A stretch of 64,000 bases of DNA from an uncultured Bacilli bacterium (GCA_934130545.1 CAKOYD010000001.1:138343-202342); one strand, 5' to 3'. Numbered from the stretch's first letter, positions 3,531 through 25,460 are shown. Numbers and translations are program-made. The notes: generated by a model from the sequence alone, not told the origin.

Positions 3531-3539
3531 ATTACACTC

Positions 3540-6094: not shown

Positions 6095-6096
6095 AT

Positions 6097-7131: not shown

Positions 7132-7182
7132 TTCCTAGTTATATATAGTATACCATTTATTATATAGAAAATAAATATTTTA

Positions 7183-7212
7183 CGTTAAAAAAGAATAGGC
7201 TTTTGGCCTATT
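7183..7212 (-). terminator. rho-independent terminator after the VanY-like gene
   Basis: 7-bp stem aataggc/gcctatt with loop ttttg, followed on the minus strand by a T-run (cttttttaa). Overlaps the stop codon. Confidence 0.5.
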
Positions 7213-7759
7213 TATGTGTTTCTAGATATTCTTCTAGGGTTTTACCGCTATTATATATGTCAATAGCTTGTGGTCCAATATATCTTAGATGCCATGGTTC
7301 ATAGTTATATCCGGTAATATCTTCTTTATTTTTAGGATATCTTAATATAAACCCGTATAATGGACATTTTTGATGAATAATTTGTAGTTCTTCTAAGTCT
7401 TCTAATTCATATTCGATATAGCATTTATCATCTTTATAAAGACAAAAGTCAATGGCTAGGCCTGTTTGATGCTCTGAACTTCCTGGTTTGGCAATACTTT
7501 TAAAGGCATAGTTATATCCTTTCTCTAAAACTAATTTATTATATATCTTTTCTTGATAGTTATAATCACGATACCCACTTTCTATATCAATACTAATGCC
7601 TTTACTTTGTAGATATTCTTGAAATTTAAGAAAATTATCATAAGCTACTTTAGATAACATAACATTATCTTTATATTTACTATTTGTTTTAACTAGATCG
7701 TAGGGAACATAGTTCTTATCTAGTTTTTTATTTTTGTTTACTAATAATATATTATTCAT
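7208..7759 (-). CDS. D-alanyl-D-alanine carboxypeptidase, peptidase M15B (VanY-like)
   Basis: SGYRDYNYQ and EHQTGLAIDF motifs typical of VanY/M15 zinc peptidases. Confidence 0.7.
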   Translation of the reverse strand: MNNILLVNKNKKLDKNYVPYDLVKTNSKYKDNVMLSKVAYDNFLKFQEYLQSKGISIDIESGYRDYNYQEKIYNKLVLEKGYNYAFKSIAKPGSSEHQTGLAIDFCLYKDDKCYIEYELEDLEELQIIHQKCPLYGFILRYPKNKEDITGYNYEPWHLRYIGPQAIDIYNSGKTLEEYLETHK

Positions 7760-7776
7760 ACTATATTATATGCTTA

Positions 7777-9870: not shown

Positions 9871-9982
9871 CTATACCACTCTCCTAACTAATTGTATCAT
9901 ATAAATATCAATAATGGTTAATAATTAATGTTTAGTTAACAAAAATATTTTAATAGAATACACTATAAATGATAAGGAGGAA

Positions 9983-10422
9983 GTGATGAAAAAAATAGTT
10001 ATAAGTTTACTTATTATTTTAATTATTGGTGTTTCTTTAATATTTACAGCATTTAATAAGAAGAACGAATCTAGTTCGTTCAAGAAAATTACGGTAGCAG
10101 AAGTTGCACATAGTGTCTTTTATGCTCCCCAATATTTAGCTTTATCTTTAGGATATTTTGAAGATGAAGGATTAGATATTGATTTAGTACTTGCTAGTGG
10201 TGCTGATGCGGTTATGGCAGCAGTGCTATCAGGAGATGCAGAGATAGGATTTTCTGGTACAGAAGCAACTATTTATGTATATAATGGTGGTGAGAAAGAT
10301 TATGTAATGACTTTTGCCGGTCTTACTCAGAAAGATGGTAGTTTCTTAGTATCTAGAGAAAAGATTGATAATTTTACTATTGATATGTTAAAAGATAAGT
10401 ATATTATCGGTGGACGTAAGGG
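9983..10422 (+). pseudogene. ABC transporter substrate-binding protein (NMT1/SsuA/TauA family), N-terminal fragment interrupted by element A
   Basis: Signal peptide/TM plus NMT1-like N-terminus ending ...IIGGRKG. The frame then runs into element-derived sequence. It continues in frame at 12921 after in-silico excision (GGRKGGMPEM). Confidence 0.75.
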
Positions 10423-10450
10423 GTTTCTTGTTAAATGTGATAGTATATAG
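10423..10450. repeat. element A left att arm (ttcttgttaaatgtgatagtatatag)
   Basis: Matches the reverse complement of 12892-12917 at 20 of 26 positions, immediately abutting the core. Confidence 0.65.
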
Positions 10451-11942
10451 TTATGTTTTTGTCTTTATCAATTGTTAGATAATTAATAATACTACTTAAC
10501 ATATTTTTATTTATATCTTTTAAGTTAATAAAATTATCGATAATAGTGTCATAGTCGTACTTTTGCTTGTTAATAATATTCATTTTCTTTAATAATTTAT
10601 TTTCTTTATCCACAAGTGTGTTGATATTATTAGTTATTTCTTTAGTGTATTCTATATATTCTTGAGTGGTTATTATATTATCTAGTTTATCATAATAGAG
10701 TTGTTTCTTTTTTGATAGTAAGTTGTTTTTATCTAGTTTTATAGAATTTAGACTAGTGGTTAGTGAAGTTTTTATTTTTTTGTTAGTGCTAGTTTGTAAG
10801 ATTTCTTTTAAGTAGACTTTATTTATGTTAGATTTTAAATATTTGCTTATTTCTTTTAGGATGACTTGTTCTAATAAATTATAATTAATAGTATGAGGAG
10901 TGCATAGTTTGTACTTACTGTATTTTCGGTAGTATGCGCAACTTGTATAACTATTATTACCTATTTTAGATATTGTTATTTGGTGCTGACATTCATAGCA
11001 CTTGATAAAACCTTTGAGTAAATAGTTAGATGATTTAGATTGGAGATTTTTATTTTTAGATAAGTTATTATTTACAATATTAAATATTTGCTTGTCAATG
11101 ATTGGTAAATGAGAGTTTTGGGTAATAATCCAATTTTCTTTGGGAGTTTTTATTTCTTTTTTTATTTTATAATTTATTTTCTTTCTTATTCCTTGATATA
11201 ATGATCCTGTATATGTGGGGTTAGTTAAAATATCTTTAATGGTCTTGCTACTCCATATGCCGGTAGAGTGTCTATGTAAATTAGCATATACACTAGGAGT
11301 TGGAATGTTTTTAGAGGTTAATATATTGGCAATTTGACTCAGACCATAACCAAGATAAGCTAAATTAAATATTTGTTTTACTATTTGTGATGAATTATCA
11401 TCAATTACTAGTTTATAACGATTATTAGGATCTAGTTTATAGCCGTATACGGCTTTCCAACCTAAAAATAAGCCTTGCTCTTTTTTTGCCCGAAGACTTC
11501 TTCTTACTTTTTTGGAAGTATCTTTAGCATATTGATCATTAAAAACGGCTTTAAATGGTGCAATGTCATTACTAGTGCTGTCATAGTAGGTGTCAATATC
11601 ATCTAATATAGCGATATATCTTATATTATGCATGGGAAAATATTTTTCAAGATACTCCCCTGTTTTAATATAGTCTCTTCCTAATCTAGAATAGTCTTTT
11701 GTTATAACACAGTTAACCTTGTTTTCTTCAATATCGTTAATTAATTTTTTAAAAGATGGTCTATCAAAGTTTGTACCAGAATAACCGTCATCAATATATT
11801 CTTGATATATTTGGTAATTGATATCTAACTTTTCAAGATAATTTAGAATAATACTTCTTTGGTTAGAGATGCTTTCACTTTCTTCTTTATCTTTATTATC
11901 GCTATGAGATAGTCTGATATAGATACCTATTTTATATATCAT
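10431..11942 (-). CDS. large serine recombinase (resolvase domain + recombinase domain + zinc ribbon + coiled coil)
   Basis: N-terminal IGIYIRLSHSD...SISNQR...DDGYSGTNFDRP...YSRLGRD resolvase catalytic motifs and a C-terminal Cys cluster. Stop is 10 bp from the left junction. Confidence 0.85.
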   Translation of the reverse strand: MIYKIGIYIRLSHSDNKDKEESESISNQRSIILNYLEKLDINYQIYQEYIDDGYSGTNFDRPSFKKLINDIEENKVNCVITKDYSRLGRDYIKTGEYLEKYFPMHNIRYIAILDDIDTYYDSTSNDIAPFKAVFNDQYAKDTSKKVRRSLRAKKEQGLFLGWKAVYGYKLDPNNRYKLVIDDNSSQIVKQIFNLAYLGYGLSQIANILTSKNIPTPSVYANLHRHSTGIWSSKTIKDILTNPTYTGSLYQGIRKKINYKIKKEIKTPKENWIITQNSHLPIIDKQIFNIVNNNLSKNKNLQSKSSNYLLKGFIKCYECQHQITISKIGNNSYTSCAYYRKYSKYKLCTPHTINYNLLEQVILKEISKYLKSNINKVYLKEILQTSTNKKIKTSLTTSLNSIKLDKNNLLSKKKQLYYDKLDNIITTQEYIEYTKEITNNINTLVDKENKLLKKMNIINKQKYDYDTIIDNFINLKDINKNMLSSIINYLTIDKDKNITIYYHI

Positions 11943-12077
11943 TATCTAGTCCATAATATTTATTAAAGTATTCTACTAAGTAATAAGATAATAGTTTGTT
12001 AATGTCAAAATTTATTTCAGGATGGATATTTATAATATTCATAGTATCACCTAGTTTAATATATGAGTAAAAAAATA

Positions 12078-12093
12078 GATTATCACGAGTGAT
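12078..12093. promoter_or_regulatory. perfect palindrome TTATCAC-GA-GTGATAA between the XRE gene and the LSR 1 start
   Basis: 7-bp inverted repeat with a 2-nt spacer. The spacer is too short for a hairpin loop, so this looks like an operator in the recombinase promoter region. Confidence 0.45.
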
Positions 12094-12096
12094 AAC

Positions 12097-12336
12097 CTAT
12101 TTATCTAAATCATTAAATAATTCTTTTATATCAATATCTAGAACTTCAGCAAACTTCCATACTGTCCCTAAACTAAATGTTTGATGATAATTGGGACTTT
12201 CAATATTCATAATAAATCCATCACTATATGAACACTTCTCAGCAAATTCTGATTGTGTTAACTTTTTAAGTTTTCTTTGTTTCTTTAAATTTTGTGATAC
12301 TAAATAGTATACATAGTTTTCATCTTTCTTATCCAT
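12097..12336 (-). CDS. XRE-family helix-turn-helix transcriptional regulator
   Basis: LTQSEFAEKCSYSDGFIMNIE HTH_3-like segment. Divergent from the plus-strand ORF 12458..12667. Confidence 0.65.
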   Translation of the reverse strand: MDKKDENYVYYLVSQNLKKQRKLKKLTQSEFAEKCSYSDGFIMNIESPNYHQTFSLGTVWKFAEVLDIDIKELFNDLDK

Positions 12337-12457
12337 ATATTAGTACACTTCCCTCTACTAATATTTTCTCACTAAAGTTGATTTTTATTCTTCACTTGTT
12401 CGTTGAGATTTGGTATAATATAGTTATAATTCTTAAATTGATTAGTGGTGAAAAGGC

Positions 12458-12667
12458 ATGATTAAAGAAAATAAAGTTAATGAAGGTGAATTGGTACTAT
12501 ATAGTACAGTATTAAGTATTTATAACTATTATAATAAAAGTTTTACTAAAGAAATTAATGATAATATTCTTTTACTTTTAGATAGCTTAGAGAAAAATAG
12601 ATGGGATAATAGTGAAGCTGATATTGATAAAATAGAATTAATTGAAAAAATTACTTATCAAGATTAA
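12458..12667 (+). CDS. hypothetical small protein (element A cargo)
   Basis: ORF only. Divergent from the XRE gene. No recognisable motif. Confidence 0.3.
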   Translation: MIKENKVNEGELVLYSTVLSIYNYYNKSFTKEINDNILLLLDSLEKNRWDNSEADIDKIELIEKITYQD

Positions 12668-12878
12668 TTATTTTTTTATATAATTCTATTTCTTTTTGGT
12701 TGTTATCTTTAAATAGTTTAATAAATTTAGTTTTTAGGGCTTGATAGTATTCGGTTAATAATAGTAAGTCTTTTTTATTTAATTGGTTTTCTTTGAGCAT
12801 TTGTCTTATTACTAGGAGTTCTAATAAAGTGTTAGATAATTCTTCATTAATATTAAATCTTATGTCTTCTATTTTCAT
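12651..12878 (-). CDS. hypothetical small protein (element A cargo)
   Basis: ORF only. Convergent with and overlapping 12458..12667, so one of the two may be spurious. Confidence 0.25.
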   Translation of the reverse strand: MKIEDIRFNINEELSNTLLELLVIRQMLKENQLNKKDLLLLTEYYQALKTKFIKLFKDNNQKEIELYKKIINLDK

Positions 12879-12891
12879 TATTTCCTTTCCT

Positions 12892-12919
12892 ATATATTAT
12901 CACTTTATACTAGAAGGGG
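12892..12919. repeat. element A right att arm
   Basis: Reverse complement (ttctagtataaagtgataatatatag) mirrors the left arm. Confidence 0.65.
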
Positions 12920-12920
12920 T

Positions 12921-13061
12921 GGTATGCCCGAGATGACATTAGAATGGGGTATTAAGCAAGCCGGGTTAGATCCTAAGACGGATATGACAGTTGATACTTC
13001 TATTGCTTTTGCTGCTATGCAGGGAGCTTTTGTTGGAGGAACAGGTGATTTTGTAACACTA
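12921..13061 (+). pseudogene. SBP gene middle fragment (NMT1/SsuA family) lying between elements A and B
   Basis: Plus-strand translation GMPEMTLEWGIKQAGLDPKTDMTVDTSIAFAAMQGAFVGGTGDFVTL is typical of NMT1-family SBPs. The listed minus-strand ORF 12905..13093 is antisense noise. Confidence 0.7.
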
Positions 13062-13163
13062 TTTGATGATAGTGATATAGTATGAAAGTGCAATATATAT
13101 AATTCTATCTTCTTATCTATTTAATTATATAATTAATGATTTCTAATAGTCAACATAATTAAT

Positions 13164-14579
13164 CTATAGATAACTAGTATAGTTTACTTGGTAAGTTATG
13201 CTATATCTTTTAGTGGATTTACTATCGTAGCCTCTTTTAAATATAAACTCTTTTTGATATGGTTTTGGTAAATTATTTATTTTAATATCTAAGATTATTT
13301 GGTTATTGTTAGAAGATACATTAATACTATCTATTACTTTTATTAGAGTGTTTATAATAGTGCTTTCTAAAACATCATTAATATTATTAGTTATTTTGAT
13401 AGTATCTATTTCTTCGTTAGTAGACTTATAGATAGTTAGTAATTCTTTAGTTATATCTTGAGTGTTAATATTTAAGATTTTAGTAATATAACTTATGATG
13501 GTATTTAATTCATTTTCTCTAATGTTTGGATTATTACATTTATTATGAATATGACTAGAACAAACCCACGATACTGTTTTATTTTTTAGATAGATTCGAC
13601 GATAGTACGTTTTGTGGCAAGAAGAACAATATATTTTTTGACTATAGGTATATTTTTGAGGAGTATTACTACTCTTTTTTCGTAATTTGAGACGTTTATT
13701 GGCTAGATTCCATGTTTCTTCACTTACTATGGGAGGAATTTTAGTATTATCTTTATATATGTACCAAGATGATGGATCAAGATATTTTATTTTTTTAGTC
13801 ATATAGTCTGCTACTTCTTTTTTATGACCACAGTAATAACCTTTATATTTTGGATTAGTAATAATTCTTGAGATTGTAGTGGTAGTCCACTTTTTGGGGG
13901 TATTATAATCATTATTTAATATTTGGCTTATTTTTGTTAGAGATAATTTATTTTTGGTATACATTTTGAAGATATTTTGAATAACTGCAGCTTCTTCAGA
14001 AATAATTTCTAAATTCTTAGTAGTCATATTTTTCTTATAGCCATATAAGTTGTTGGCTCCTAGAACCTCTCCCCTTTTTATGGCTCTACTCATACCAAAT
14101 TTTATTCTTTCGGATAATCTTCTTACTTCATCTTGGGCAAGACTAGCCATTATTGTTAGGCGTAATTCCGAGTCATTTAATATAGTATTGATGTTATCGT
14201 TTATAAATAATACTGCCACACCATAGTTTAATAATTCTCTTGAATACTTAATACTATCAAGGGTATTTCTAGAAAATCTTGATATTTCTTTGGTTATTAT
14301 TAAGTCAAACTTATTTTTTTTGGCATCATTAATCATTTGCATAAACATTTTTCTCTTTATATCACTGACACCACTGATACCTTCATCAATATAACCAGGG
14401 ACATAAGTCCAATTAGGGTTATTCATTATATATTCAGAAAAGTGTTCATTTTGATTTTGTAATGATTTAATTTGCTCTAGGTGTTCGGTGGATACTCTAG
14501 CATAATAAGTAGCTCTTAGAGGAATATTATTTAATAATTCACCACTTGCTAATTTTTTCTTTACTTCATAGATATTCAT
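13164..14579 (-). CDS. large serine recombinase
   Basis: YARVST...QNQ...DEGISGVSD...ISRFSRN resolvase motifs, a recombinase domain and a C-terminal Cys-rich zinc ribbon. Lies at the left end of element B. Confidence 0.85.
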   Translation of the reverse strand: MNIYEVKKKLASGELLNNIPLRATYYARVSTEHLEQIKSLQNQNEHFSEYIMNNPNWTYVPGYIDEGISGVSDIKRKMFMQMINDAKKNKFDLIITKEISRFSRNTLDSIKYSRELLNYGVAVLFINDNINTILNDSELRLTIMASLAQDEVRRLSERIKFGMSRAIKRGEVLGANNLYGYKKNMTTKNLEIISEEAAVIQNIFKMYTKNKLSLTKISQILNNDYNTPKKWTTTTISRIITNPKYKGYYCGHKKEVADYMTKKIKYLDPSSWYIYKDNTKIPPIVSEETWNLANKRLKLRKKSSNTPQKYTYSQKIYCSSCHKTYYRRIYLKNKTVSWVCSSHIHNKCNNPNIRENELNTIISYITKILNINTQDITKELLTIYKSTNEEIDTIKITNNINDVLESTIINTLIKVIDSINVSSNNNQIILDIKINNLPKPYQKEFIFKRGYDSKSTKRYSITYQVNYTSYL

Positions 14580-14710
14580 TCGTTATAGTACTCTTTCTTT
14601 GACAGTTTATCTTGGCAGAAGTTATATAAATATAGGGAGATAATATTTTCTTCATATAGTTTGCTATTTATTTCAAGGGCTAGATTATTAGTAATTATTT
14701 TCTTTAGCAT
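14576..14710 (-). CDS. 44-aa small ORF overlapping the LSR 2 start (ATGA overlap); single-Cys peptide with a charged tail
   Basis: MLKKIITNNLALEINSKLYEENIISLYLYNFCQDKLSKKEYYNE. Read from the sequence; below the ORF-track length cutoff. Function is speculative. Confidence 0.25.
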   Translation of the reverse strand: MLKKIITNNLALEINSKLYEENIISLYLYNFCQDKLSKKEYYNE

Positions 14711-14778
14711 GTTATCACCTATTTAATTTTATGTGATAAATATTAATTTATAATTTACTAGTGGTTTATTATGTGATA
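14711..14778. promoter_or_regulatory. GTGATA-containing repeats upstream of the LytTR regulator gene
   Basis: TTATGTGATA at 14729-38 and 14769-78 (direct, 40 bp apart) plus the inverted copy gTTATCACct at 14711-20. LytTR proteins bind imperfect direct repeats. Confidence 0.4.
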
Positions 14779-14813
14779 GAATTAAATAGTACGTTTACTC
14801 TCATTAGATAAGA

Positions 14814-15569
14814 ATGGGAGTTATTATGAACTTTATTGTATATGAAGATGATACAAGATTTTCTTACGAATATAAAAAAGTTATTCACAAAGTTATGGGG
14901 CTATCGAGTGATAATTATAAGATAACAGAATTTAATAGTTATAATAAAGAAGTATGGGAAAAAATTAAGACAATTGGTAGTCCTAAAATATTTATTGTTG
15001 ATGTTGAAGTTCCTAATAAAAATGGTATTGATTTAGCAAGAATGATTAGAAAAAGCGGTGATTGGACAAGTCCGATTATTGTTATTACTAATTATCAAGA
15101 ATTTAGAAATGTCGGCTATACTGCTAAAATACTAATGTTAGATTTTATAAATAAGAAAGATAATATAAAAGAAGAATTATATCGTGATTTACTTATTGCT
15201 TTAGAAATTAATTCAACGAAGAAAGCTTTACGTTTTACTATTAAAGGTGAAGTTTATCAAGTTCCTTACCAAGATATATTATATATTGAAAAGAATATTA
15301 ATGATAATTATGCTACTATTGTTTGTTCAGATAAAGAATATACCATTAGAAAAACTATTTGTGAATTAGAAGAAGAACTTAAAGATGAGAATATTTTTGT
15401 TAAGAGTCATCGTAGTTTTATTGTAAATATAAATAATATTAAATCTATTAAGTTTGATTATTCAGTTATTGAGTTTGGTAATGGAATAGAAGCATTAATA
15501 TCTAGAAATAACAAAAAGAAATTAAAAGAGATTATGAGTTATAAGAATGAACGGCACTATAATATATAA
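14814..15569 (+). CDS. LytTR-family response regulator (AgrA/ComE-like)
   Basis: N-terminal receiver domain (DD...K pattern) and a C-terminal LytTR DNA-binding domain (FVKSHRSFIVNINNIKSI). Confidence 0.8.
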   Translation: MGVIMNFIVYEDDTRFSYEYKKVIHKVMGLSSDNYKITEFNSYNKEVWEKIKTIGSPKIFIVDVEVPNKNGIDLARMIRKSGDWTSPIIVITNYQEFRNVGYTAKILMLDFINKKDNIKEELYRDLLIALEINSTKKALRFTIKGEVYQVPYQDILYIEKNINDNYATIVCSDKEYTIRKTICELEEELKDENIFVKSHRSFIVNINNIKSIKFDYSVIEFGNGIEALISRNNKKKLKEIMSYKNERHYNI

Positions 15570-16848
15570 TATTATTGATTTTTATTTAATTAGTTTTTAT
15601 TACTATTTTACTAATCGTATTGTTTTTAGAAAACGAGTATATATTAACTATTACACTTTATTAATTTTTGTTATTTGTGGAGTTATGTTTTGTCTTGGTA
15701 AGATAATGCTTTGTAGTTTATTAATTATTATACCTTCTTTTTTAGTGGGATTTATTTATAATAAATATATTTTTAAGATGAAGACTTGTACTTCGTATTT
15801 ATTATCACTTATTTCTTCTTTTGTACTAGCTTTTATTGTAGCACTTTTTTGTGTACTATTTAGATTCTTAGGAATTAGTTTTGGTGGTAATTATTTATTG
15901 TTTTTATTGGCTAAAATGTTTTATATTGGGATAACGATGCTTATTACTTATGTAATTACGTGGAAAGTCTTCGAAAAGATTACCTTTAGTTATCGTAATT
16001 TTTGTTATATCATTGTGATAGGTGTTGTTATTTGTTTAGCATTATTAGTTATGGTTATGATTATGGTACATGAAAATAAGATATGTTTAATGTTATATCT
16101 TGCTTTAATAGCCATGCTATTACTAGGCACTTTGGTTGTGGACTATCGAGAGAAAAAGAATGCTGCTTGTGGAAAAAGGCTTATTGAACTATATGAATAT
16201 GCTAAAGAAAGTGATGCTGTTATTACCGAGTATAGAATGGCTTTACATGAGAGTAATAATACTCTACTAGCTATTAAAGGGATGCTTGGTGGTAATGCTG
16301 ATGAAATTAGAGATTATGTTGATAATGCTATTAAGAAACGTAGAAATATTACTGTTCCTAAAGATAACTTTGGTGCTTTAAATTATATACCTGTTCCTTC
16401 GATTAGATACTTTCTTAGTGGGAAGATATGTGCCATTAAGGATATTGGTTCTAGTGTAGAATTATTTATTAGTCCTGAGGTAGTTAAGATTAAAGATTAT
16501 GTAGGAATGGTTGATTGCTGGAATGATCTTTATATAGTTTTGGGAGTTGTGTTAGATAATGTAATTAATTCTTTGAAAGAAGCTCCTGATAAACTTTGCA
16601 GTATACAAATATATTTAGAAAGTACTATTTTACATTTTGAGTTTGCTAATACTTTTAATGATACTGCGAATGTTAGAAAAATAGCAAAGACAGGATATAA
16701 AACTAAGAATGTTAATCATGGTGTTGGATTGTCTTTAGTTGATGAAGTTTTAAAAGAGAAAAAATATTATAGTTTAGAAACGGATATTGTTGATAATTTC
16801 TTTGTTCAAAAATTAAAAATTGATTTAAGTAAGATTAAGATTAAGTAA
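15547..16848 (+). CDS. membrane sensor histidine kinase, AgrC/ComD-like (HPK10), GHKL ATPase
   Basis: Six or seven N-terminal TM helices, an H-box region and a C-terminal HATPase_c (NHGVGLSLV). Overlaps the response-regulator gene end. Confidence 0.75.
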   Translation: MNGTIIYNIIDFYLISFYYYFTNRIVFRKRVYINYYTLLIFVICGVMFCLGKIMLCSLLIIIPSFLVGFIYNKYIFKMKTCTSYLLSLISSFVLAFIVALFCVLFRFLGISFGGNYLLFLLAKMFYIGITMLITYVITWKVFEKITFSYRNFCYIIVIGVVICLALLVMVMIMVHENKICLMLYLALIAMLLLGTLVVDYREKKNAACGKRLIELYEYAKESDAVITEYRMALHESNNTLLAIKGMLGGNADEIRDYVDNAIKKRRNITVPKDNFGALNYIPVPSIRYFLSGKICAIKDIGSSVELFISPEVVKIKDYVGMVDCWNDLYIVLGVVLDNVINSLKEAPDKLCSIQIYLESTILHFEFANTFNDTANVRKIAKTGYKTKNVNHGVGLSLVDEVLKEKKYYSLETDIVDNFFVQKLKIDLSKIKIK

Positions 16849-16973
16849 ATTAATTCCCAAAAATCATTAAATATTTACTATTTATCATTTATTATAATTT
16901 TCTTATTTGTATGTGTTATGATGGTGTCATGCGAATAACCAATTCGTAAGATTGAAAGCGAGGTAAATTTGTA

Positions 16974-17183
16974 ATGAATGGTAAAGTAAAATGGTTTAAT
17001 AATGAGAAAGGATATGGCTTTATTGAATATAAAGACAATGAGGATATTTTTGTTCACTACTCTGCAATTAAGTGTAATGGATTTAAAACCTTAAAAGAGG
17101 GTGAACTTGTTCAGTTTAAACTTATTGATACTGATAAAGGTCTACAAGCTAGAGAAGTACTTTCATTATCTAGTATTTGTTAA
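16974..17183 (+). CDS. cspA: cold-shock protein (CspA family)
   Basis: MNGKVKWFNNEKGYGFI RNP1 and VHYSAI RNP2 motifs. Long 5' UTR. Confidence 0.9.
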   Translation: MNGKVKWFNNEKGYGFIEYKDNEDIFVHYSAIKCNGFKTLKEGELVQFKLIDTDKGLQAREVLSLSSIC

Positions 17184-17204
17184 AATATAAGTCATTAATT
17201 AATA

Positions 17205-17239
17205 CTCAATTACATATAATTTGTAGTTGAGTTTTTTAC
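17205..17239 (+). terminator. rho-independent terminator after cspA
   Basis: Stem ctcaattac/gtagttgag (8/9 pairs), loop atataattt, then TTTTTT. Confidence 0.55.
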
Positions 17240-17254
17240 TGCTTTCCTACCCTT

Positions 17255-17683
17255 ACACTAACAGAACCTAATGCAACAGCTGTAGAAAAAGCTGGGCTTG
17301 GTCATATTGTATGTTATGTTGGGGATTTAGGTGGTTTAGTGCCTTATACTGCTTATAATGCTAAGAAAAGTTTTATAGATAATAATAAAGATGTTATTAA
17401 GGGATTTAGTAAGGCTATTGATAAAGCACTTAAGTATGTTGATAGTCATGATAGTAAAGATATAGCACCTCTTATATTAGATTATTTTCCTGATACTAAG
17501 TTAGAGGACATGATTACAATAATTGATCGATATAAAACTGGTCAAGCATGGAAGAAAAATATTACTATTAATGAAGATGAATGGAATCATATTCAAGAAA
17601 TAATAATGGAAGCTGGCGAGTTAAATAATACTGTTAGTTATGATAAATTAGTATATTCTAAGCATTTTAAAGATTATGAATAA
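17255..17683 (+). pseudogene. SBP gene C-terminal fragment (NMT1/SsuA family)
   Basis: In-frame TLTEPNATAVEKAGLGHIVCYVGDLGG... continues to the stop at 17683. The listed ORF start at 17339 is an internal GTG. Confidence 0.7.
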
Positions 17684-18095
17684 TATAGTTCAAATAAAAA
17701 ATATTAGTAAAGACTTTTATAGTAAGAATAAGATAACTACTGCGATTAAGGATATATCACTTGATGTTAAAGATGGGGAGTTTGTGGCTATTGTTGGACC
17801 TTCAGGGTGTGGTAAATCGACACTACTTAATATACTATGTAATTTAGATAAGCCAACTAGTGGGCAAATAATATTGAAGAATAATGCAAAAATTGGTTAT
17901 ATGCTCCAACAAGATTGTTTATTTCCATGGTTAACTATTTTCGATAATTGTTGTATAGGGTTAAAGATTGAAAATAAGTTAACTAAAGAGAATAAAGAAT
18001 ATGTTAAGAATTTATTATATACCTATGGGCTTAAAGATTTTATGAATAGTTATCCTAATAGTTTATCTGGTGGTATGCGTCAAAGAGTTGTTTGA
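17676..18095 (+). pseudogene. ABC transporter ATP-binding protein (SsuB/TauB/NrtD-like), N-terminal fragment interrupted by element C
   Basis: Walker A GPSGCGKST, Q-loop and signature LSGGMRQRV, then an element-derived stop. Walker B and the H-loop are found at 24348+. Confidence 0.8.
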
Positions 18096-18105
18096 ATATA
18101 ATAAA

Positions 18106-18134
18106 GACACAAGAAAATACACCCTAAGGTGTAC
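18106..18134 (-). terminator. terminator of the MMPL gene
   Basis: Stem tacacc/ggtgta with loop ctaa, then a T-rich run on the minus strand. Confidence 0.4.
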
Positions 18135-18136
18135 TT

Positions 18137-21100
18137 CTATTTAAATAAATTAACTATTCTATCCCAAAGCGTTGTTGTTTTAGCTTCTTTTACACTTTGA
18201 GATGCTGTAGATGTTTTTAAGGCATCAGTAGTTAAGATAAATCTTGTTGTAGACTTTTCTGAAGATCCGGCAAATGTTTGATAGTTATCGGCTAAGTTAG
18301 ATAATTCTTTTGCACGATATGACATTGATTTTAAATTACCATTAACAAGAGCAGATATTTGTTTGATACCTTCAGTGTTATATTTAGATATACCTTTCGA
18401 TAATTCTTGAATACCATTATTTAATTCATCTACTCCATTATATAGTGTACCTAATGATGTTTTAGTAGCTTCGATTGAAGCTTGTTTTACTTGGTTAGCA
18501 ACAGATGTTGAAGTATTTTCAGCAACAATGGAAGCGGTTTGAATTGCTGACTCATATGCACTATTAATAGCGGTCATTCTTGTTGTTTCTTCCATTAATG
18601 TTTTCATTTCTTGTAATGTAGTATATTTGGTAATATAGTCTTTATTGTTAGTACATGCTTCAACATATGGTGCGGAAATAGTAGTGCTTTGACAAACACT
18701 TACTAGACTTGAAGTAATACCGTTTGCTTCTAACATATTAATACTATTTACTATATTTTGATATGTAGAGTTTTCTTTTAATTTATTAACAGCATTATTA
18801 CCTATTTGTTCCTTATATTCATTAGTAAATGTTTTGTTGACAGTGGCTACAGCTTGAGATTTGATGTATGCTACTTGTTCAGAAGTTAAGGCATCTGATT
18901 CATCATCTATTTTACTAATAGCTTGTTCTAGTCTTTCTTTTAATTCGTTAGAACCATTAGCAATTTTAGTAGCTCCTTCTTCGATAGTATTCATATTATT
19001 TTGTAAATTATTTACTTTGCTATATACTTCATCTAATTTATTAAAGATATTTAAATCATTTGTTTCAATTAACTTTGGTGTAATTATTGAATACATAGAA
19101 GATAATTCAAATTTTGTTGTATCATAACTAATGGTAATAGTATCCATATTCTTTAATTCATATAGTCCTAGACTTTCATATAAACCTGGTGTTGCTAAAC
19201 CAACAATAACATAATTATTACCATTATTAATTACTTTACCATTATCAATAGTTAAGTTTTGGTTATTTGTAGTGCTTATTACACTTCCTAAAGTAGCTAC
19301 AAATGGTGTATATAAACTGCCATGTTTATCATGATTAATATATTGGATTTTTATTGTTACTTTACCACTTTTACCTATGATATCACTTGCTTTGTATTCA
19401 GTACCATCTAATAGATATGTAATTTTTAGACTTACTGGTAATTCTTTATCAGTAGTACCTTTATATAAGATATCTCTTCCTTTAGCATCCCATGTTAATT
19501 GATTATTATTTTGAGTAAATGTTCGATCATCATTAATATTTAAGATATTTTTTAATTCTGAATAGTCTTCGATAGAATCTAGTTTATCAGAATTAATTAA
19601 TTGTTCATTAACAGTGGTACTTTTAATAGTGCCATCATAATTTAATTTACTATAAACAGATTCCTTTTTCTCTAATGCAAAGATGTTTGTTGGAAATACT
19701 GTTGTTAATATGCCACCTAATAATAACCAAGTGGCTATTTTCTTAGATTTTATTTTATTCATTATTTTTTCCTCCTTATTTTTAATTATTACTTTATCAA
19801 ATAGTAATAATATTGCTGGTAAGATAGTTATTACTACCAAGACGCTTATTAGAGCTCCTCTTGATATTAGTGTACATATTGAACCAATCATTTCGATATC
19901 AGAATATAATCCGACACCAAAGGTTGCTGCAAAGAAACACATGCCACTAATTAATATTGATGGTACAGCATAGTTCATTACTTCTAACATAGCTTGTTCT
20001 TTACTTAAACCTTCTTTTCTTTTATTTATATAACTTGTTGTTACTAAGATAGCATAATCAATAGTAGCTCCTAATTGAATTGTTCCTAAAGTAATAGGTG
20101 CTATAAATGGTAATACTGTTCCACCAAAGTATGAGAAACTCATATTCGTGAATATAGCAAATTCAATAGCAATAATTAATAATATTGGTAAGATAAATGA
20201 TTTTAGTACAAATAGTAAGACAATAAATATACATACTATTGAGAATATATTAACGTTATTATAGTCAGTATCATAAGTTTCTACTAAGTCTTTCATTAAT
20301 GGTCCTTCACCTGCTACAATAGCTTTTTTATCATATGATTTAACAATATTATTTAATTTATCAGTTTGATTATTTAACTCATTAGTGGCTATATCATATG
20401 TTGAGTTAACAATCATCATTTCATAGTTTTCACTTTCAAAGATGCTTGATAAATTACTTGGAATGATATCTTCTGTTACTCCTATACTACTTAGTTCTCT
20501 AAATGATAAAACAAAATCAATTCCGTCTAGTTCTTTTATTTGTGATATCATATTGTTTATATCTTCATTTTTTAAGTCTTTACTTATTAGTATTATTTCT
20601 GGACTAACAATATTATATTTTTCTTTTAATAATTTATTTGTTTTAACACTTTCTAATGTTTCTGGTAATGATGAATCTAGTTTGTAGTATACATCAACTT
20701 TTTTATTTGCAAGATATGCTGGTACTAATAGAATTAAGAAGATGGCAAATACTACTTTATAGTGTTTAATTATAAAACTATTAAATTTAGCAAAGCTTGG
20801 TATTAAATTACCATGTCTTGTTTTCTCTATTAATTTATCAGAGATTAGTAACAAACTTGGGAATAAGGTTAAGACTGTTAAGACTCCTAGTAAAACACCT
20901 TTGGCCATAACTATTCCTAAATCACGGCCTAATGTTAATCGCATAGCACATAGTGCTAAGAAACCAACGATTGTTGTTAAGCTACTACCGGTAACAGATA
21001 CAAAGGTATCTTGGATAGCTTCAGACATAGCTTCTTCTTTTGTTTTATATTTGTTTTTCTTATCTTCATATGAATGATATAAGAAGATTGAGAAGTCAGT

Positions 21101-21817
21101 AGTAACTCCTAATTGTAAGACTGCTACTAAGGCTTTAGTAATATATGATATTTGTCCTAAAAAGATGTTTGTTCCTAGATTTAAGAGAATTGCACATCCT
21201 ATATTACCTAATAGAACAAATGGTACAAAGTATGAGTCTAAGGATAGTTCTAGTACAATGGTACATAGTAGAACAGCAATAATAATATAGATAGCTATTT
21301 CACGTTCAGATAATTCCATAGTATCAAGGACCATAGAACTCATACCACCTTGAGATATTTTTCCTTCGGTTATTTTTCTTATTTCTTTTACGGCTGATAT
21401 TGTTTTTTCATTAGATGTTGATTCGTTGAAGGTAATAAACATAATATCAGTATTTTCTTTATGTAATTTGTCTTTTACTTCACTAGGAAGCATATCGATA
21501 GGAATTGATACACCAATAGCATCGTAAATACTTACGACATTGGCAACTCCATCAATACCTTTTATTTTTTCTTCTAGGGATAATACATCTTTAGCAGGCA
21601 TATTTTCGATAGTTGCTATTGAGTATCCACCCATGTTGAAGTCATTTGTTAATACATTTTGGCCTTTTATTGTTTCTATATCATCTGGTAAATAAACTAA
21701 AATATTATAATTTATTTTGGTTAATTTCATCCCAATAAATGATAGAACTAATAAAATACTAAATGTAATTATAATTAATGTTTTATGTTTGCATATATAA
21801 TCAGCAATTTTCTTCAT
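18137..21817 (-). CDS. MMPL/RND-superfamily membrane transporter fused to a C-terminal YhgE/Pip-like extracytoplasmic domain (~1226 aa)
   Basis: Two 6-TM bundles separated by a soluble loop (MMPL architecture), then a further TM and a ~500-aa Ser/Thr/Asn-rich coiled-coil region like the YhgE/Pip N-domain. Probable start at ATG 21817 (RBS GGAGGGAG). The track's 18137..21850 ORF uses an upstream Met. Confidence 0.7.
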   Translation of the reverse strand: MKKIADYICKHKTLIIITFSILLVLSFIGMKLTKINYNILVYLPDDIETIKGQNVLTNDFNMGGYSIATIENMPAKDVLSLEEKIKGIDGVANVVSIYDAIGVSIPIDMLPSEVKDKLHKENTDIMFITFNESTSNEKTISAVKEIRKITEGKISQGGMSSMVLDTMELSEREIAIYIIIAVLLCTIVLELSLDSYFVPFVLLGNIGCAILLNLGTNIFLGQISYITKALVAVLQLGVTTDFSIFLYHSYEDKKNKYKTKEEAMSEAIQDTFVSVTGSSLTTIVGFLALCAMRLTLGRDLGIVMAKGVLLGVLTVLTLFPSLLLISDKLIEKTRHGNLIPSFAKFNSFIIKHYKVVFAIFLILLVPAYLANKKVDVYYKLDSSLPETLESVKTNKLLKEKYNIVSPEIILISKDLKNEDINNMISQIKELDGIDFVLSFRELSSIGVTEDIIPSNLSSIFESENYEMMIVNSTYDIATNELNNQTDKLNNIVKSYDKKAIVAGEGPLMKDLVETYDTDYNNVNIFSIVCIFIVLLFVLKSFILPILLIIAIEFAIFTNMSFSYFGGTVLPFIAPITLGTIQLGATIDYAILVTTSYINKRKEGLSKEQAMLEVMNYAVPSILISGMCFFAATFGVGLYSDIEMIGSICTLISRGALISVLVVITILPAILLLFDKVIIKNKEEKIMNKIKSKKIATWLLLGGILTTVFPTNIFALEKKESVYSKLNYDGTIKSTTVNEQLINSDKLDSIEDYSELKNILNINDDRTFTQNNNQLTWDAKGRDILYKGTTDKELPVSLKITYLLDGTEYKASDIIGKSGKVTIKIQYINHDKHGSLYTPFVATLGSVISTTNNQNLTIDNGKVINNGNNYVIVGLATPGLYESLGLYELKNMDTITISYDTTKFELSSMYSIITPKLIETNDLNIFNKLDEVYSKVNNLQNNMNTIEEGATKIANGSNELKERLEQAISKIDDESDALTSEQVAYIKSQAVATVNKTFTNEYKEQIGNNAVNKLKENSTYQNIVNSINMLEANGITSSLVSVCQSTTISAPYVEACTNNKDYITKYTTLQEMKTLMEETTRMTAINSAYESAIQTASIVAENTSTSVANQVKQASIEATKTSLGTLYNGVDELNNGIQELSKGISKYNTEGIKQISALVNGNLKSMSYRAKELSNLADNYQTFAGSSEKSTTRFILTTDALKTSTASQSVKEAKTTTLWDRIVNLFK

Positions 21818-21993
21818 TTTTCTCCCTCCGATAATATAGTTTATTATCATTTGTTGTTTTGGTACACACTAATAAAATATATTATGTTTGTTATCCAACA
21901 TTTTGATTAATATGTATATATATTTAAGCAACATTTTGTATGTTAATTGCTTTTTTGTTATTTTTGCAATATAATTATGTCGAGGCGGTAAAA

Positions 21994-22560
21994 ATGAAGG
22001 ATAAAACTGATTTAAGAGTTATAAAAACGAATAAGATACTATTTGAGGCTCTAACTACTTTGATGAAAGAGAAAACTTTTGAAAAGATTAAGATATCAGA
22101 TATATGTGAAGTGGCTCTGATAAATCGTTCAACTTTTTATGCACATTATGAAGATAAATATGAATTGTTATTAGCACTTATTGAAGATTTAAAAGATAAT
22201 TTGTTAGTAGAGCTAAATAAGAATGAAGCTGAATCTTTGTCCAAAGAATATTTTATGGAACTTTTAGAGATTTTAATTGACCATATTGATAGTAAGAGAG
22301 AGATTTATAGTGCAATACTTTCTCATAATAAGAATGGAATATTTGTGGACTTTTTAATTGATGTGGCTAATCGAGACTTGGCAAAAAGATTAAAGGATAA
22401 TCAGGAAATAATTAAATCAAATATTCCAGCGGATATTATTTCTAAATTTTATCTTGGTGGGATAATAAATATTGGTGTTGATTGGATTATTAATAAAGAT
22501 AAATATAATAAGGAACAAATACTTTTATATCTAGATAAGCTTATTCCAGATAAGTTATAG
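21994..22560 (+). CDS. TetR/AcrR-family transcriptional regulator
   Basis: N-terminal TetR_N HTH (FEKIKISDICEVALINRSTFYAHYEDK). Divergent from the MMPL gene. Likely start at ATG 21994 with a GAGG RBS. Confidence 0.8.
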   Translation: MKDKTDLRVIKTNKILFEALTTLMKEKTFEKIKISDICEVALINRSTFYAHYEDKYELLLALIEDLKDNLLVELNKNEAESLSKEYFMELLEILIDHIDSKREIYSAILSHNKNGIFVDFLIDVANRDLAKRLKDNQEIIKSNIPADIISKFYLGGIINIGVDWIINKDKYNKEQILLYLDKLIPDKL

Positions 22561-22768
22561 TAAAGTCATGACTACGGTTGTGGCTTTTTTTATTTATTCT
22601 ATTTCTAATTTAAATGAATAAAATATAAGTGAAATTTGGTGATTTATGAAATATGAAATTATTAAAGTATTTGATGATGATATTAGTGAATTAGAAATAA
22701 AAGATATTGTTAATAAGAAGTTAAGCATCATTATGAATATTATAGAGTTTAATTAGAGGTGATTAGAT

Positions 22769-24319
22769 ATTATTAATAAGTTAAAAGTAGGAATTTATTT
22801 AAGATTATCGAGTGAAGATAAAGATAAAATTAATAAAGATGACTATAGTGAATCTATTAAGAATCAAAGAAATATGCTAGTGGATTATATAAGTAAACAT
22901 GATGATTTTTATTTGGTAGATGAATATTGTGACGAAGATTTATCGGGTGCTGGAACATATAGACCAGAGTTTGAAAGATTAATTAATGATTGTGAAGGGC
23001 ATAGACTCGATATCGTTTTATGTAAAAGCCAGTCAAGATTTTCTAGAGATATGGAAATTGTTGAAAAATATATAAATAATAAATTTATCGAATGGAATAT
23101 TAGATTTATTGGCCTTGCAGATAATGCTGATACTGATAATTTTGGTAATAAGAAAGCTAGGCAAATTAATGGATTAGTTAATGAATGGTATTTAGAAGAT
23201 ATATCAAATAATATTAGAAGTGCATTTAATTCTAAAATGAAACAAGGTGAGTTTATCTCCCCTTTTGCACCTTTCGGATATGAGATTTCTTCTAATGATA
23301 ATAATAAGATTGTTATTGATAAAATTGGCTCGGAAATAGTTAAAAATATTTATAATTTGTATTTAAAGGGGTTAGGATTTACAAAAATTGCAGAGTATTT
23401 AAATAATAATAATGTCCCCTCACCTTCTTTATATAAGTATCAAAAAGGATGTAAGTTAAATATAATTAGTAATAAGAGGCGTGATGAAATCAAATGGAAT
23501 GGCAGTGCTGTTAAAAAGATATTAACTAATGAAATATATATTGGAAATTTAATACAAGGCAAAAGAACAACAGTTAGTTATAAGAATCATAGAATTATAA
23601 ATAAAAGAAAAAGTGAGTGGATAAGAAAAGAAAATACTCATGAAGGTATTATAGATAAAGATACTTTTTATAAGGTACAGTCGATTATTAATAGTCGTAG
23701 AAGGCCCTCTAAAAAATTAGGCACGATGCATATATTTTCGGGAAAAGTTTTTTGTATGGAATGTAATAGTATGATGAAAAAAAAGAATTCACAAAGACAT
23801 GAATACTTGGTATGCTCTAATAGTAATTGTCTTAATAAGTCTATACGCTATGATATGTTAGAGGGTATTATACTTAAAGAAGTTAATGGATTAGTTAGTA
23901 AATATTATGATAGTGAATTATTAAAAAAATATAGTTTAGAAGAAAGAAATATTATAGATAAAGTAAATACTTTAAATATGCAACATAATGATTTAAGAAA
24001 TAGAATTTCTAGATTAGATAATTACTTAAAGTCTCTTTATGAAGATAAGGTTAATGGTGTTATTACGGAAGAATATTTTATAAAACTTACTAATAGTTAT
24101 AATAATGATAAAAAAATTATTGAAGATAACATTAAATCTGTAGAGAGTAAGATAAGTTATTATAGAAATTATTTTAATGATAATATTATAGATAGATATA
24201 AAAGTTTTGATAATTTAAATAAGGTAATTGTTGATGAATTTGTTAATAAGATATGTGTTGGGAAGATAGCTAATAATAAAAGAAAAATTGAAGTTAGATG
24301 GCGTTTTTTATTTAATTAG
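22769..24319 (+). CDS. large serine recombinase (no canonical in-frame start upstream of the catalytic Ser; possible ATT start)
   Basis: VGIYLRLSSEDKD...IKNQR...SQSRFSRD resolvase motifs, a recombinase domain and a Cys cluster. The frame opens at 22763 after TGA. The first in-frame ATG is 22874, which lies downstream of the catalytic Ser. RBS AGAGGTGA sits 6 nt before ATT at 22769. Confidence 0.7.
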   Translation: MINKLKVGIYLRLSSEDKDKINKDDYSESIKNQRNMLVDYISKHDDFYLVDEYCDEDLSGAGTYRPEFERLINDCEGHRLDIVLCKSQSRFSRDMEIVEKYINNKFIEWNIRFIGLADNADTDNFGNKKARQINGLVNEWYLEDISNNIRSAFNSKMKQGEFISPFAPFGYEISSNDNNKIVIDKIGSEIVKNIYNLYLKGLGFTKIAEYLNNNNVPSPSLYKYQKGCKLNIISNKRRDEIKWNGSAVKKILTNEIYIGNLIQGKRTTVSYKNHRIINKRKSEWIRKENTHEGIIDKDTFYKVQSIINSRRRPSKKLGTMHIFSGKVFCMECNSMMKKKNSQRHEYLVCSNSNCLNKSIRYDMLEGIILKEVNGLVSKYYDSELLKKYSLEERNIIDKVNTLNMQHNDLRNRISRLDNYLKSLYEDKVNGVITEEYFIKLTNSYNNDKKIIEDNIKSVESKISYYRNYFNDNIIDRYKSFDNLNKVIVDEFVNKICVGKIANNKRKIEVRWRFLFN

Positions 24320-24347
24320 GGATGTGTTTATGATATTCAAGGAGTTG

Positions 24348-24679
24348 CTTTAATTAGGACACTAGCAATTAAACCGGATATATTGCTTTTGGATGAGCCA
24401 TTTTCTGCTCTTGATTATCAATCACGTTTAGCAGTATGTGATGATGTATATAGAATAATTAAAAAAGAAAAGAAAACAATTATTATGATTACTCATGATA
24501 TTGCTGAAGCTATTTCTATGGCTGATAGAATTGTAATACTTACTGGCAGACCCGCAATGGTAAAGAAGATTATGGATGTTAAGTTAACTAATTCTAGTAC
24601 TCCTATTAATAATAGAAAGTGTGTAGAATTTAGTAAGTATTATGAAAGTATATGGAAAGAGTTGGATTTTCATGTATAG
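24348..24679 (+). pseudogene. ABC transporter ATP-binding protein, C-terminal fragment
   Basis: [23 protein letters not shown] (Walker B) and ITHDIAEA (H-loop). In frame with, and directly after, the recombinase stop. Confidence 0.8.
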
Positions 24680-25460
24680 TGATGAGTATAAAAAATATTT
24701 GAAGAAGAATAAGATTAATAATTATTTAATTAAGTTTACTCAGATTAGTATATTAGTTTTATTATTACTTTTATGGGAATATTTAGCAAGAAATAATATA
24801 ATTAATTCTTTTATATCTTCTTCTCCTTCAAGAGTAATTAAGGCTATTATAAATTTATATAAGCAAAATAATTTATTTAATAATATATGGATTACGGTAT
24901 ATGAAACATTAATTAGTTTTATACTAGGAACACTTATTGGAACGTTTATAGCAATTGTTCTTTGGTATAATAAATTTATATATAAAGTAGTTGATCCTTA
25001 TTTAACAATATTAAATAGTTTACCTAAGGTAGCGTTGGGTCCAATTATTATTATTTATAGTGGTGCTAATATAAATTCAATTATTACTATGGCTTTACTA
25101 ATTTCGGTAATTATAACAATCATAACGGTATATAATGGTTTTGTGAATACTGATTATAGCAAAATTAAATTATTGAACTCTTTAAAGGCTACTAAAATGC
25201 AAATTCTGAAATATGTAATTTTACCAAGTAGTTATTCAACTATTATTAGTTCTTTAAAGATTAATGTTAGTATGTCTTTGATTGGGGTAATTATGGGAGA
25301 GTTTCTAGTTTCGAAAAAAGGAATTGGATATCTAATTAATTATGGTTCACAAGTTTTTAACTTAGATTTAGTGATAGCGGGAATAATTATTTTAATGATT
25401 GTGTCTTATCTTATGTATTTAGCTGTGCTTTATATTGAGAAAAAGTTAATTAGGGAATAA
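24642..25460 (+). CDS. ABC transporter permease (SsuC/TauC-like, BPD_transp_1)
   Basis: Six TM helices with an EAA-like loop. Follows the ATPase gene. Confidence 0.8.
   Translation: MKVYGKSWIFMYSDEYKKYLKKNKINNYLIKFTQISILVLLLLLWEYLARNNIINSFISSSPSRVIKAIINLYKQNNLFNNIWITVYETLISFILGTLIGTFIAIVLWYNKFIYKVVDPYLTILNSLPKVALGPIIIIYSGANINSIITMALLISVIITIITVYNGFVNTDYSKIKLLNSLKATKMQILKYVILPSSYSTIISSLKINVSMSLIGVIMGEFLVSKKGIGYLINYGSQVFNLDLVIAGIIILMIVSYLMYLAVLYIEKKLIRE

Follow-up and report, generated by a model that had tools for sequence, protein, structure and literature searches.

The stretch of 64,000 nt from an uncultured Bacilli bacterium of the human gut analysed here (in the following, the window; G+C content ~26%) contains a gene in which a transporter of the MMPL/RND type is fused in frame to a large C-terminal ectodomain, accompanied by a divergent TetR-family regulator gene and situated on a small integrative element, designated element C. 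We interpret this locus as encoding an inducible RND-type exporter of lipids or amphiphiles that possesses its own wall-spanning stalk and is carried by a mobile element, and assign to this statement as a whole a probability of roughly 0.55. Gene content, domain layout, linkage of the genes, fusion statistics, internal start signals, attachment (att) sites and the empty insertion site are direct observations, which leave little room for doubt (Table 1).

The fused giant protein is the standard form of a conserved cassette, composed of a TetR gene and an MMPL gene plus partner, in a clade of gut Bacilli. A genome scan (one genome per species) with a 12-sequence alignment of the partner yielded 160 relatives, and the counts of loci given below refer to the best 80 of these 160. 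All scanned relatives originate from uncultured low-GC gut bacteria, labelled as Bacilli, Tenericutes, Mycoplasma sp. CAG, Coprobacillus sp. CAG or Erysipelotrichaceae. An MMPL gene is situated directly upstream of the partner in 79 of the 80 loci, the lone exception being found at a contig edge, and a divergent TetR gene is present in most of them. MMPL gene and partner are fused in frame in 67 loci and split in 13, and a search with the full-length protein recovers at least 120 clusters of 1210-1393 aa at 100% query coverage; it is because of these numbers that fusion is regarded as the standard form. Most of the cassette loci of the relatives have no recombinase gene nearby. Four loci (L010, L030, L057, L071) carry the labels Muribaculaceae or Phocaeicola vulgatus, which may be binning or labelling errors; the host genes flanking the cassette in L010 are 92-95% identical to those of the window.

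Concerning the partner itself, a search with the tail only returns hundreds of relatives, most of which stand alone, comprise ~570-610 aa, begin with a signal peptide and match no Pfam domain; their genes follow directly 3' of a ~685-aa MMPL gene, often with an overlap of a few bases and with a TetR_C_8 regulator in divergent orientation. An exhaustive phmmer search with the beta-rich domain only finds 3,612 cluster representatives at E<=1e-3 and 667 at E<=1e-30 (clusters counted at 50% identity), in which this domain is located at residues ~26-235 of proteins of 500-890 aa or at ~715 in fusions of ~1220-1370 aa. These partners constitute a large family that has neither a model nor a name in the sources used and is apparently undescribed. 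They evolve faster than the MMPL core (34-88% vs 53-94% identity). A subgroup of fused proteins of 1317-1393 aa (P0128, P0129, P0135, P0139, P0154, P0195, P0240) exhibits a longer and more repetitive coiled coil with faint matches to coiled-coil Pfam models, such that the length of the hairpin varies; it is much greater in some relatives of 1370-1393 aa. A plasmid collection contained a single remote, partial match to the tail (27% over the beta-domain), and the tail is therefore not a known plasmid gene; transporter, TetR regulator and recombinase match none of the PADLOC defence models.

The minus-strand frame of the fused gene is open over 1237 codons (18137..21850). The ATG at 21817 is directly preceded on its 5' side by the Shine-Dalgarno (SD) sequence GGAGGGAG, and a homologue from independent assemblies (P0121) likewise comprises 1226 aa, with 97% identity; for these two reasons the reading of 1226 aa is considered correct.

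The fused gene keeps start signals of its second half. In the window, the junction reads AAGGAGG-N8-ATG AAT AAA inside the open frame; the split locus L001 possesses the identical SD sequence and ATG, and its MMPL frame ends 8 nt further on. An SD-like motif 4-12 nt before the conserved in-frame junction ATG occurs in 58 of 63 fused loci, compared with 9% of the other in-frame ATGs of the same open reading frames (ORFs) and 70 of 76 true MMPL starts, and the junction Met itself is at least 90% conserved. Across the family, the junction has the form of a canonical signal peptide (MKKxxKK, a hydrophobic core and PxxxFA/LTKxETVY, the slash marking the cleavage site), the A-x-A-like motif of which suggests cleavage by signal peptidase I. 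Since ribosome-binding site, ATG and signal peptide are retained, the ectodomain is probably made and exported separately even from fused genes, and on this ground fused and split forms would alternate easily; whether the cassette consists of one fused gene or of two is a shallow, minor variation.

The N-terminal part is an MMPL/RND transporter core. The Pfam model MMPL (PF03176) matches it in two stretches with 187.9 bits (cut-off 20.5), whereas the NCBIfam subfamily models TIGR00833 and TIGR00921 match below their cut-offs. A hydropathy scan and the secondary structure of an AlphaFold2 (AF2) model jointly fit 12 transmembrane (TM) helices and two short periplasmic alpha/beta domains; the full-length model spans residues 27-1226 with a predicted local distance difference test score (pLDDT) of 74.6. 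The nearest solved relatives of the core are MmpL4 and MmpL5, both by sequence (E~1e-12 against PDB sequences) and by fold (Foldseek E 2e-27, TM-score 0.77-0.79, root-mean-square deviation 3.5-4 A over ~700 columns), followed by MmpL3 and HpnN. Asp241 in TM4 (..GVTTDFS..) and Asp587-Tyr588 in TM10 (..GATIDYA..) are invariant among 64 homologues; going by what is established for MmpL3, we take these to be the RND proton-relay positions, and their retention suggests that the pump is probably active.

The core is followed, after TM12, by a Lys-rich stretch and a 13th hydrophobic segment at aa ~694-714, and the hydropathy scan detects no hydrophobic segment C-terminal of aa 715; Ser, Thr and Asn account for 31% of the remaining ~510 aa. 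The original prediction, made from the window's sequence, had described precisely this succession of a 12-TM MMPL/RND core, an additional TM segment and a large coiled-coil, Ser/Thr/Asn-rich extracytoplasmic region, as well as the divergent TetR regulator, and in these respects it holds. The ectodomain was modelled as a monomer with AF2 (537-aa segment, alignment of 68 sequences, mean pLDDT 86). In the numbering of this segment, a beta-rich domain (27-224) is followed by a long helical hairpin (230-488), the descending arm of which is predicted as a single helix of 119 residues (~17 nm); a strand (499-508) then rejoins the beta-domain, and a short C-terminal helix bears the family motif (L/F)WDR(I/V)KNLFK. 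The membrane-proximal beta-rich domain matches no Pfam or NCBIfam model. Its nearest PDB folds according to Foldseek are eukaryotic mu-homology domains (AP-2 mu2, COPI delta; E~3e-7, TM-score 0.2-0.45), whereas phmmer and profile searches of PDB sequences with the tail yield coiled-coil noise only (chemoreceptors, Lpp, designed bundles), and a viral structure library contains no meaningful match to the ectodomain model.

Conservation decreases with distance from the membrane: column entropy rises from 0.93 bits in the MMPL core to 1.28 in the beta-domain, 1.7 in the membrane-proximal halves of the hairpin and 2.35 at its distal tip, where the largest insertions and deletions are found as well. 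Exactly two Cys residues, 8-22 positions apart, are present in the mature ectodomain of 36 of the 68 family members; in the protein of the window they are situated near the hairpin tip (aa 1042 and 1055).

The original prediction had further compared the tail to the N-domain of YhgE/Pip (phage infection protein), and this part was contradicted by both domain models and structure prediction. TIGR03061 and TIGR03062 (NCBIfam) match neither the whole protein at E<=0.01, nor the tail even at E<=10, nor ten longer relatives of the tail. TIGR03057 (xxxLxxG) does match the tail, with 28 bits (cut-off 18.6) and up to 139 bits in relatives; this repeat does not by itself define the YhgE/Pip family, and it is the only feature common to both. 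In Foldseek, the 50 best PDB fold matches of the tail model include none of EsaA, YueB and PIP, and the model does not have the EsaA-like ectodomain fold of helical domains with a distal beta-domain. EsaA and PIP adopt a "there and back again" fold that carries the beta-domain at its distal tip, the part exposed to phages (bioRxiv 10.1101/2020.08.17.254201), whereas in the tail of the window protein this domain is membrane-proximal. The general build is similar to that of YhgE/Pip, EsaA and YueB, i.e., membrane-anchored proteins with a very long, coiled-coil-rich extracytoplasmic region, xxxLxxG repeats and an exposed variable part, but besides the missing TIGR03061/TIGR03062 match and the reversed position of the beta-domain, the tail lacks their C-terminal multi-TM domain, and its family is tied to MMPL genes and not to those of the type VII secretion system. 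A YhgE/Pip identity of the tail is rejected on account of the absent model match, the absent C-terminal membrane domain and the reversed beta-domain. The architecture, which had been called unusual, is so in comparison with characterised proteins, but among the relatives a TetR/MMPL-ectodomain cassette is standard. An ordinary core-genome transporter without YhgE/Pip similarity, the alternative then considered, describes the locus only by half: the similarity is absent and the cassette is chromosomal in most relatives, but the copy of the window is mobile.

Element C comprises 6,257 bp and interrupts the gene of an ABC ATPase. The ORF 17676..18095 encodes the first 139 aa of this protein and 24320..24679 the remainder; the two halves are 56% and 65% identical to the respective halves of an intact 249-aa homologue, and the split point lies inside the codons of the signature motif (LSGGMRQR/VALIRT). 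The sole genes between the halves are those of the fused transporter, the TetR regulator and a large serine recombinase, which is ~30% identical to TndX over 100% of its length. Scanning metagenomes for the undivided target revealed a conspecific contig (L111) that is 98.6% identical to positions 10685-18097 of the window and continues directly with 96.5% identity to positions 24337-25394; the neighbouring elements are present in it, whereas precisely the 6,257 bp of element C are absent, and its target gene is intact. This empty site is direct evidence of a recent insertion or a precise excision, and the element is mobile, in agreement with the earlier assignment of the transporter as cargo of an integrative element. 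The target is also uninterrupted, with an empty attB, in L039. Related elements are inserted at the same nucleotide position in L010, L011, L017 (~8.5 kb) and L019 (~11.8 kb according to hit coordinates), i.e., in five genomes including the window; those in L017 (~3230-11780) and L019 (~4005-15809) are larger and carry extra cargo beside the TetR-MMPL cassette. The host genes of L011 are as distant from those of the window (ABC ATPase 59-67%, permease 54%) as those of the element-free L004, whereas its cargo is much nearer to that of the window than the cargo of L004 is (MMPL 87% vs 67%, TetR 89% vs 55%), a contrast of identities that is consistent with joint horizontal transfer of cassette and element. 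An attP-like pattern has 8 matches in viral contigs, which are regarded as chance matches, since none has related genes beside it.

With its single large serine recombinase at one end, the short duplicated core, the imperfect inverted-repeat ends, the site-specific insertion and the precise empty site, element C resembles TndX/TnpX-type elements (Tn5397 and Tn4451 class). Unlike these, it contains neither conjugation or mobilisation genes nor an antibiotic-resistance gene, but carries the TetR-MMPL cassette and is targeted to the LSGGMRQR/V codons of an NMT1-type ABC transporter operon.

Table 1. Features of the fused gene, its regulator and element C (positions refer to the window; a slash within an amino-acid motif marks a cleavage or split point)
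Feature	Position	Strand	Remarks
Fused MMPL-ectodomain gene, 1226 aa plus stop	18137..21817	-	ATG at 21817 is the likely start
MMPL/RND core, aa 1-~680	19778..21817	-	12 TM helices and two periplasmic domains
Internal SD AAGGAGG (19771-19777) and in-frame ATG (19760-19762, Met686)	19760..19777	-	kept in the fused ORF
Putative signal peptide or 13th TM helix, aa 686-714	19676..19762	-	MNKIKSKK, hydrophobic core, PTNIFA/LEKK; cleavage site from motif only
Membrane-proximal beta-rich domain, aa 715-917	19067..19675	-	family-defining
Long alpha-helical hairpin, aa 919-1177	18287..19063	-	hypervariable distal tip, aa ~969-1117
xxxLxxG heptad repeats, aa 1123-1147	18377..18451	-	TIGR03057 match
Strand returning into the beta-domain, and tail	18140..18286	-	ends in the conserved motif LWDRIVNLFK
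Terminator-like hairpin 3' of the fused gene	18114..18137	-	
Divergent promoter region with two conserved direct repeats	21818..21993	.	candidate promoter or TetR operator
TetR-family regulator, 188 aa	21994..22560	+	from Met19 of ORF 21940..22560; TetR_N and TetR_C_8
Terminator-like hairpin 3' of the TetR gene	22562..22587	+	
Large serine recombinase, 481 aa	22874..24319	+	Resolvase, Recombinase, Zn_ribbon_recom, weak DUF4368
Integrative element C, 6,257 bp	18091..24347	.	
Duplicated 10-bp core	18081-18090 and 24338-24347		CAAAGAGTTG and CAAGGAGTTG, respectively
Element ends			imperfect inverted repeats TTGAATAT...ATATTCAA
Predicted circular-form junction of element C			...ATATTCAAGGAGTTGTTTGAATAT...
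Predicted restored target			...CGTCAAAGAGTTGCTTTAATTAGG...
5' part of the interrupted ABC-ATPase gene	17676..18090	+	ends ...LSGGMRQRV
3' part of the interrupted ABC-ATPase gene	24348..24679	+	ALIRTLA... to stop

Serine-recombinase elements appear to have targeted the NMT1/ABC/permease operon repeatedly in this clade. Just upstream of the ABC-ATPase gene in the window, the gene of an NMT1-type substrate-binding protein is also split (N-part 9983..10450, C-part 17339..17683) by an insertion of ~6.9 kb, which contains two large serine recombinases (10431..11942 and 13164..14579), a LytTR response regulator and GHKL kinase (14814..16848) and a cold-shock protein gene (16974..17183); this split arrangement recurs in L090, which stems from a Hadza sample, and in L111. 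In L098, L100, L120 and L124, the ABC-ATPase gene is interrupted elsewhere by other serine recombinases, which are 25-28% identical to that of element C. In the element-free relatives L004 (5558-13813) and L013, the cassette is situated between the NMT1 gene and an uninterrupted ABC gene, flanked by the lipid-related genes named below for L004, and two WXG100 genes are found near it.

The TetR-family regulator is identified by matches to TetR_N (26.4 bits, cut-off 24) and TetR_C_8 (40.8 bits, cut-off 26.1) in Pfam. Its start is most likely at 21994 and not at 21940, because homologues are 186-190 aa long. The intergenic region between TetR and MMPL genes contains direct repeats of the form ~AAATGTTGnnTAW (AAATGTTG), ~30 bp apart, which are kept across distant loci (L001-L089), and GTAAAGATAA occurs in this region in 38 of 67 loci. 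A scan for sigma-70 promoters carries no information at a GC content of 26%, since shuffled sequences gave more matches than this DNA.

Beyond these observations, we infer the class of the substrate, induction via TetR, cleavage of the signal peptide and the role of the ectodomain as stalk or conduit. The TetR regulator would sense a compound of hydrophobic or amphiphilic character (e.g., fatty acids, bile or dietary lipids or one of the cell's own lipids), upon which the divergent promoter would be de-repressed; the MMPL core, driven by the proton-motive force, would take the compound out of the outer leaflet of the membrane. The partner module would reach the outside of the cell by means of a signal peptide of its own, the same segment serving as TM13 in the fused protein, such that the beta-domain would remain at the membrane and the helical hairpin would project through the cell wall. 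There, the module could act as a scaffold or conduit that takes the substrate away from the membrane, as a functional match to the MmpS Ig-like domain and the coiled-coil tube of the mycobacterial MmpS5-MmpL5 system. From the retained internal ribosome-binding site and ATG, both products would probably also be made separately. Taken alone, the stalk or conduit mechanism is a possibility against which the odds stand somewhat.

The idea of a stalk or conduit and of induction via TetR is based on the precedents of MmpS5-MmpL5 and FarR/FarE. In the MmpS5-MmpL5 trimer of M. tuberculosis, an antiparallel coiled coil of 196 aa per protomer forms a tube of ~13 nm that is needed for efflux; the coiled coil of MmpL5 has a disulfide at its tip, and MmpS5, which consists of a TM helix and an Ig-like domain, stabilises the tube (PMC12501195). 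The MMPL core of the window is closest to MmpL4/5 among solved proteins, and both systems possess a long antiparallel helical hairpin, in many cases bearing a Cys pair near its tip, alongside a TM-anchored beta-sandwich accessory, in an operon under a dedicated repressor. They differ in several respects: in MmpL4/5, 196 aa inserted into periplasmic domain 2 form the hairpin, and MmpS is a small protein of its own, whereas the periplasmic domains of the window protein are short and its hairpin belongs to the C-terminal module; beta-domain and hairpin constitute one module of ~510 aa, which follows a signal peptide and is either encoded 3' of the MMPL gene or fused to the C-terminus of its product, and the host is a monoderm low-GC gut bacterium. 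FarE/FarR of S. aureus, an MMPL-type pump with a divergent TetR regulator, confers inducible resistance to antimicrobial fatty acids (PMC10019231, PMC12671165). It shares with the locus of the window the combination of a Firmicute MMPL-type RND pump and a divergent TetR-family regulator, but is chromosomal and not part of a recombinase element. To our knowledge, FarE possesses neither a large C-terminal ectodomain nor a partner protein. YdfJ (724 aa) and YdgH (885 aa) of B. subtilis are likewise MMPL-family transporters of a Firmicute and would lack the C-terminal ectodomain of ~540 aa.

Several points weigh against the proposed exporter with stalk. Between the partner module and MmpS or the coiled coil of MmpL5, no sequence homology was found, and since the hairpin of the window protein is a separate module and not an insertion in periplasmic domain 2, the parallel to MmpL5 is one of analogy, not of homology. 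The linker between TM12 and TM13 and TM13 itself have a pLDDT of 35-45 in the full-length model, so that no claim is made on a docking of the ectodomain onto the periplasmic domains of the MMPL core. Cys residues are entirely absent from the mature ectodomain in 19 of the 68 family members, and the resemblance of the beta-domain to mu-homology domains is a likeness of fold only, which is uninformative on lipid handling. Concerning regulation, the AT-rich intergenic repeats could be mere promoter elements rather than an operator. The hypervariable tip fits exposure at the surface, under phage or immune pressure, equally well as it fits a conduit. Finally, none of the publications listed by a keyword search (MMPL, heptad repeats, Firmicutes) describes such an architecture.

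One alternative is that the cassette has a housekeeping role, delivering a lipid or glycolipid of the cell's own envelope to the wall in the manner of MmpL3 or HpnN, with the copy on element C being this lineage's version of a near-core function. The presence of the cassette in 160 species-representative genomes, mostly without a recombinase nearby, is in line with this, as is the fact that the characterised structural relatives are exporters of lipids or siderophores. In L004, moreover, the cassette is neighboured by genes for a PAP2 phosphatase, DUF308, a PlsC-type acyltransferase, a diacylglycerol-kinase-like protein and a phosphatidylserine decarboxylase; such neighbours fit a lipid-related substrate in general. 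However, the conspecific L111 is without the cassette at this site, even if it may have another copy in a different place, and TetR-type regulators in divergent orientation are typical of inducible efflux, FarR/FarE being an example; a housekeeping exporter is considered unlikely.

Alternatively, the ectodomain might mainly be an exposed fibre, i.e., a surface receptor or adhesin the tip of which meets phages, host molecules or cells, with the MMPL part as an anchor or with an unrelated job. A distal tip that is hypervariable in sequence and length on a conserved base, the faster evolution of the partner compared with the MMPL core, and the xxxLxxG repeats common to YhgE/Pip-type proteins would agree with this; in EsaA and PIP, both of them long and wall-spanning, the exposed tip serves phages as a receptor. 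Yet the topology is opposite to that of EsaA and PIP, neither the TIGR03061/TIGR03062 models nor the PDB and viral structure searches described above point to such proteins, the proton-relay residues are invariant, and the near-obligate linkage to MMPL and TetR genes (79 of 80 loci) would be unexplained if transport were irrelevant. We consider a mainly receptor-like protein improbable; a Pip-like receptor role, as a side effect of the exporter or as its rival, may nevertheless be kept alive by the hypervariable tip.

That the fusion is an artefact of assembly or sequencing, or a decaying pseudogene derived from two genes, is rejected as highly improbable: two genes overlapping by a few bases do exist in some relatives, and in one low-coverage contig (L008/L009; 4.6 kb, 1.9x) the fused ORF is broken at 888 aa, but in-frame fusion recurs in 67 of 80 independent loci and in at least 120 protein clusters, a 97%-identical fused copy is known from another assembly, and the break in L008/L009 is probably an assembly error, since a contig of a metagenome-assembled genome with the same locus (L011) has the fused ORF intact.

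MMPL core, TetR regulator and serine-recombinase element are each of a known kind. What is new is an unnamed and apparently undescribed family of partners, tightly linked or fused to MMPL pumps of gut Bacilli, together with fused genes that keep internal start signals and a minimal element that brings a whole pump into the signature-motif codons of an ABC gene. RND/MMPL pumps of Gram-positive bacteria are poorly understood, and how substrates pass across the thick wall is an open question; the requirement for the coiled-coil tube of MmpL5 was shown in 2025 (PMC12501195). The locus described here points to an unrelated module of similar architecture beside MMPL genes in uncultured gut Bacilli, in at least 160 genomes that each represent a species, and, if this module is a stalk or conduit, it would represent a new class of RND accessory component. 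More specifically, and with considerable doubt, the family might consist of dedicated MMPL partners of monoderm gut bacteria, oligomers of which would build a coiled-coil stalk or tube across the wall; the partner would be produced on its own as a secreted protein or else from a fused gene that has its own ribosome-binding site and signal peptide, the pump being mobile on a minimal serine-recombinase element in some lineages. If this is true, Gram-positive bacteria would possess a counterpart to both the MmpS5L5 tube and periplasmic adaptor proteins, built from an unrelated fold. The conserved signature-motif codons of an ABC gene as an attachment site may be of interest to serine-integrase engineers. 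For the gut commensals themselves, the cassette is a possible determinant of tolerance to bile, fatty acids or drugs, here on a 6.3-kb element that is present or absent between strains.

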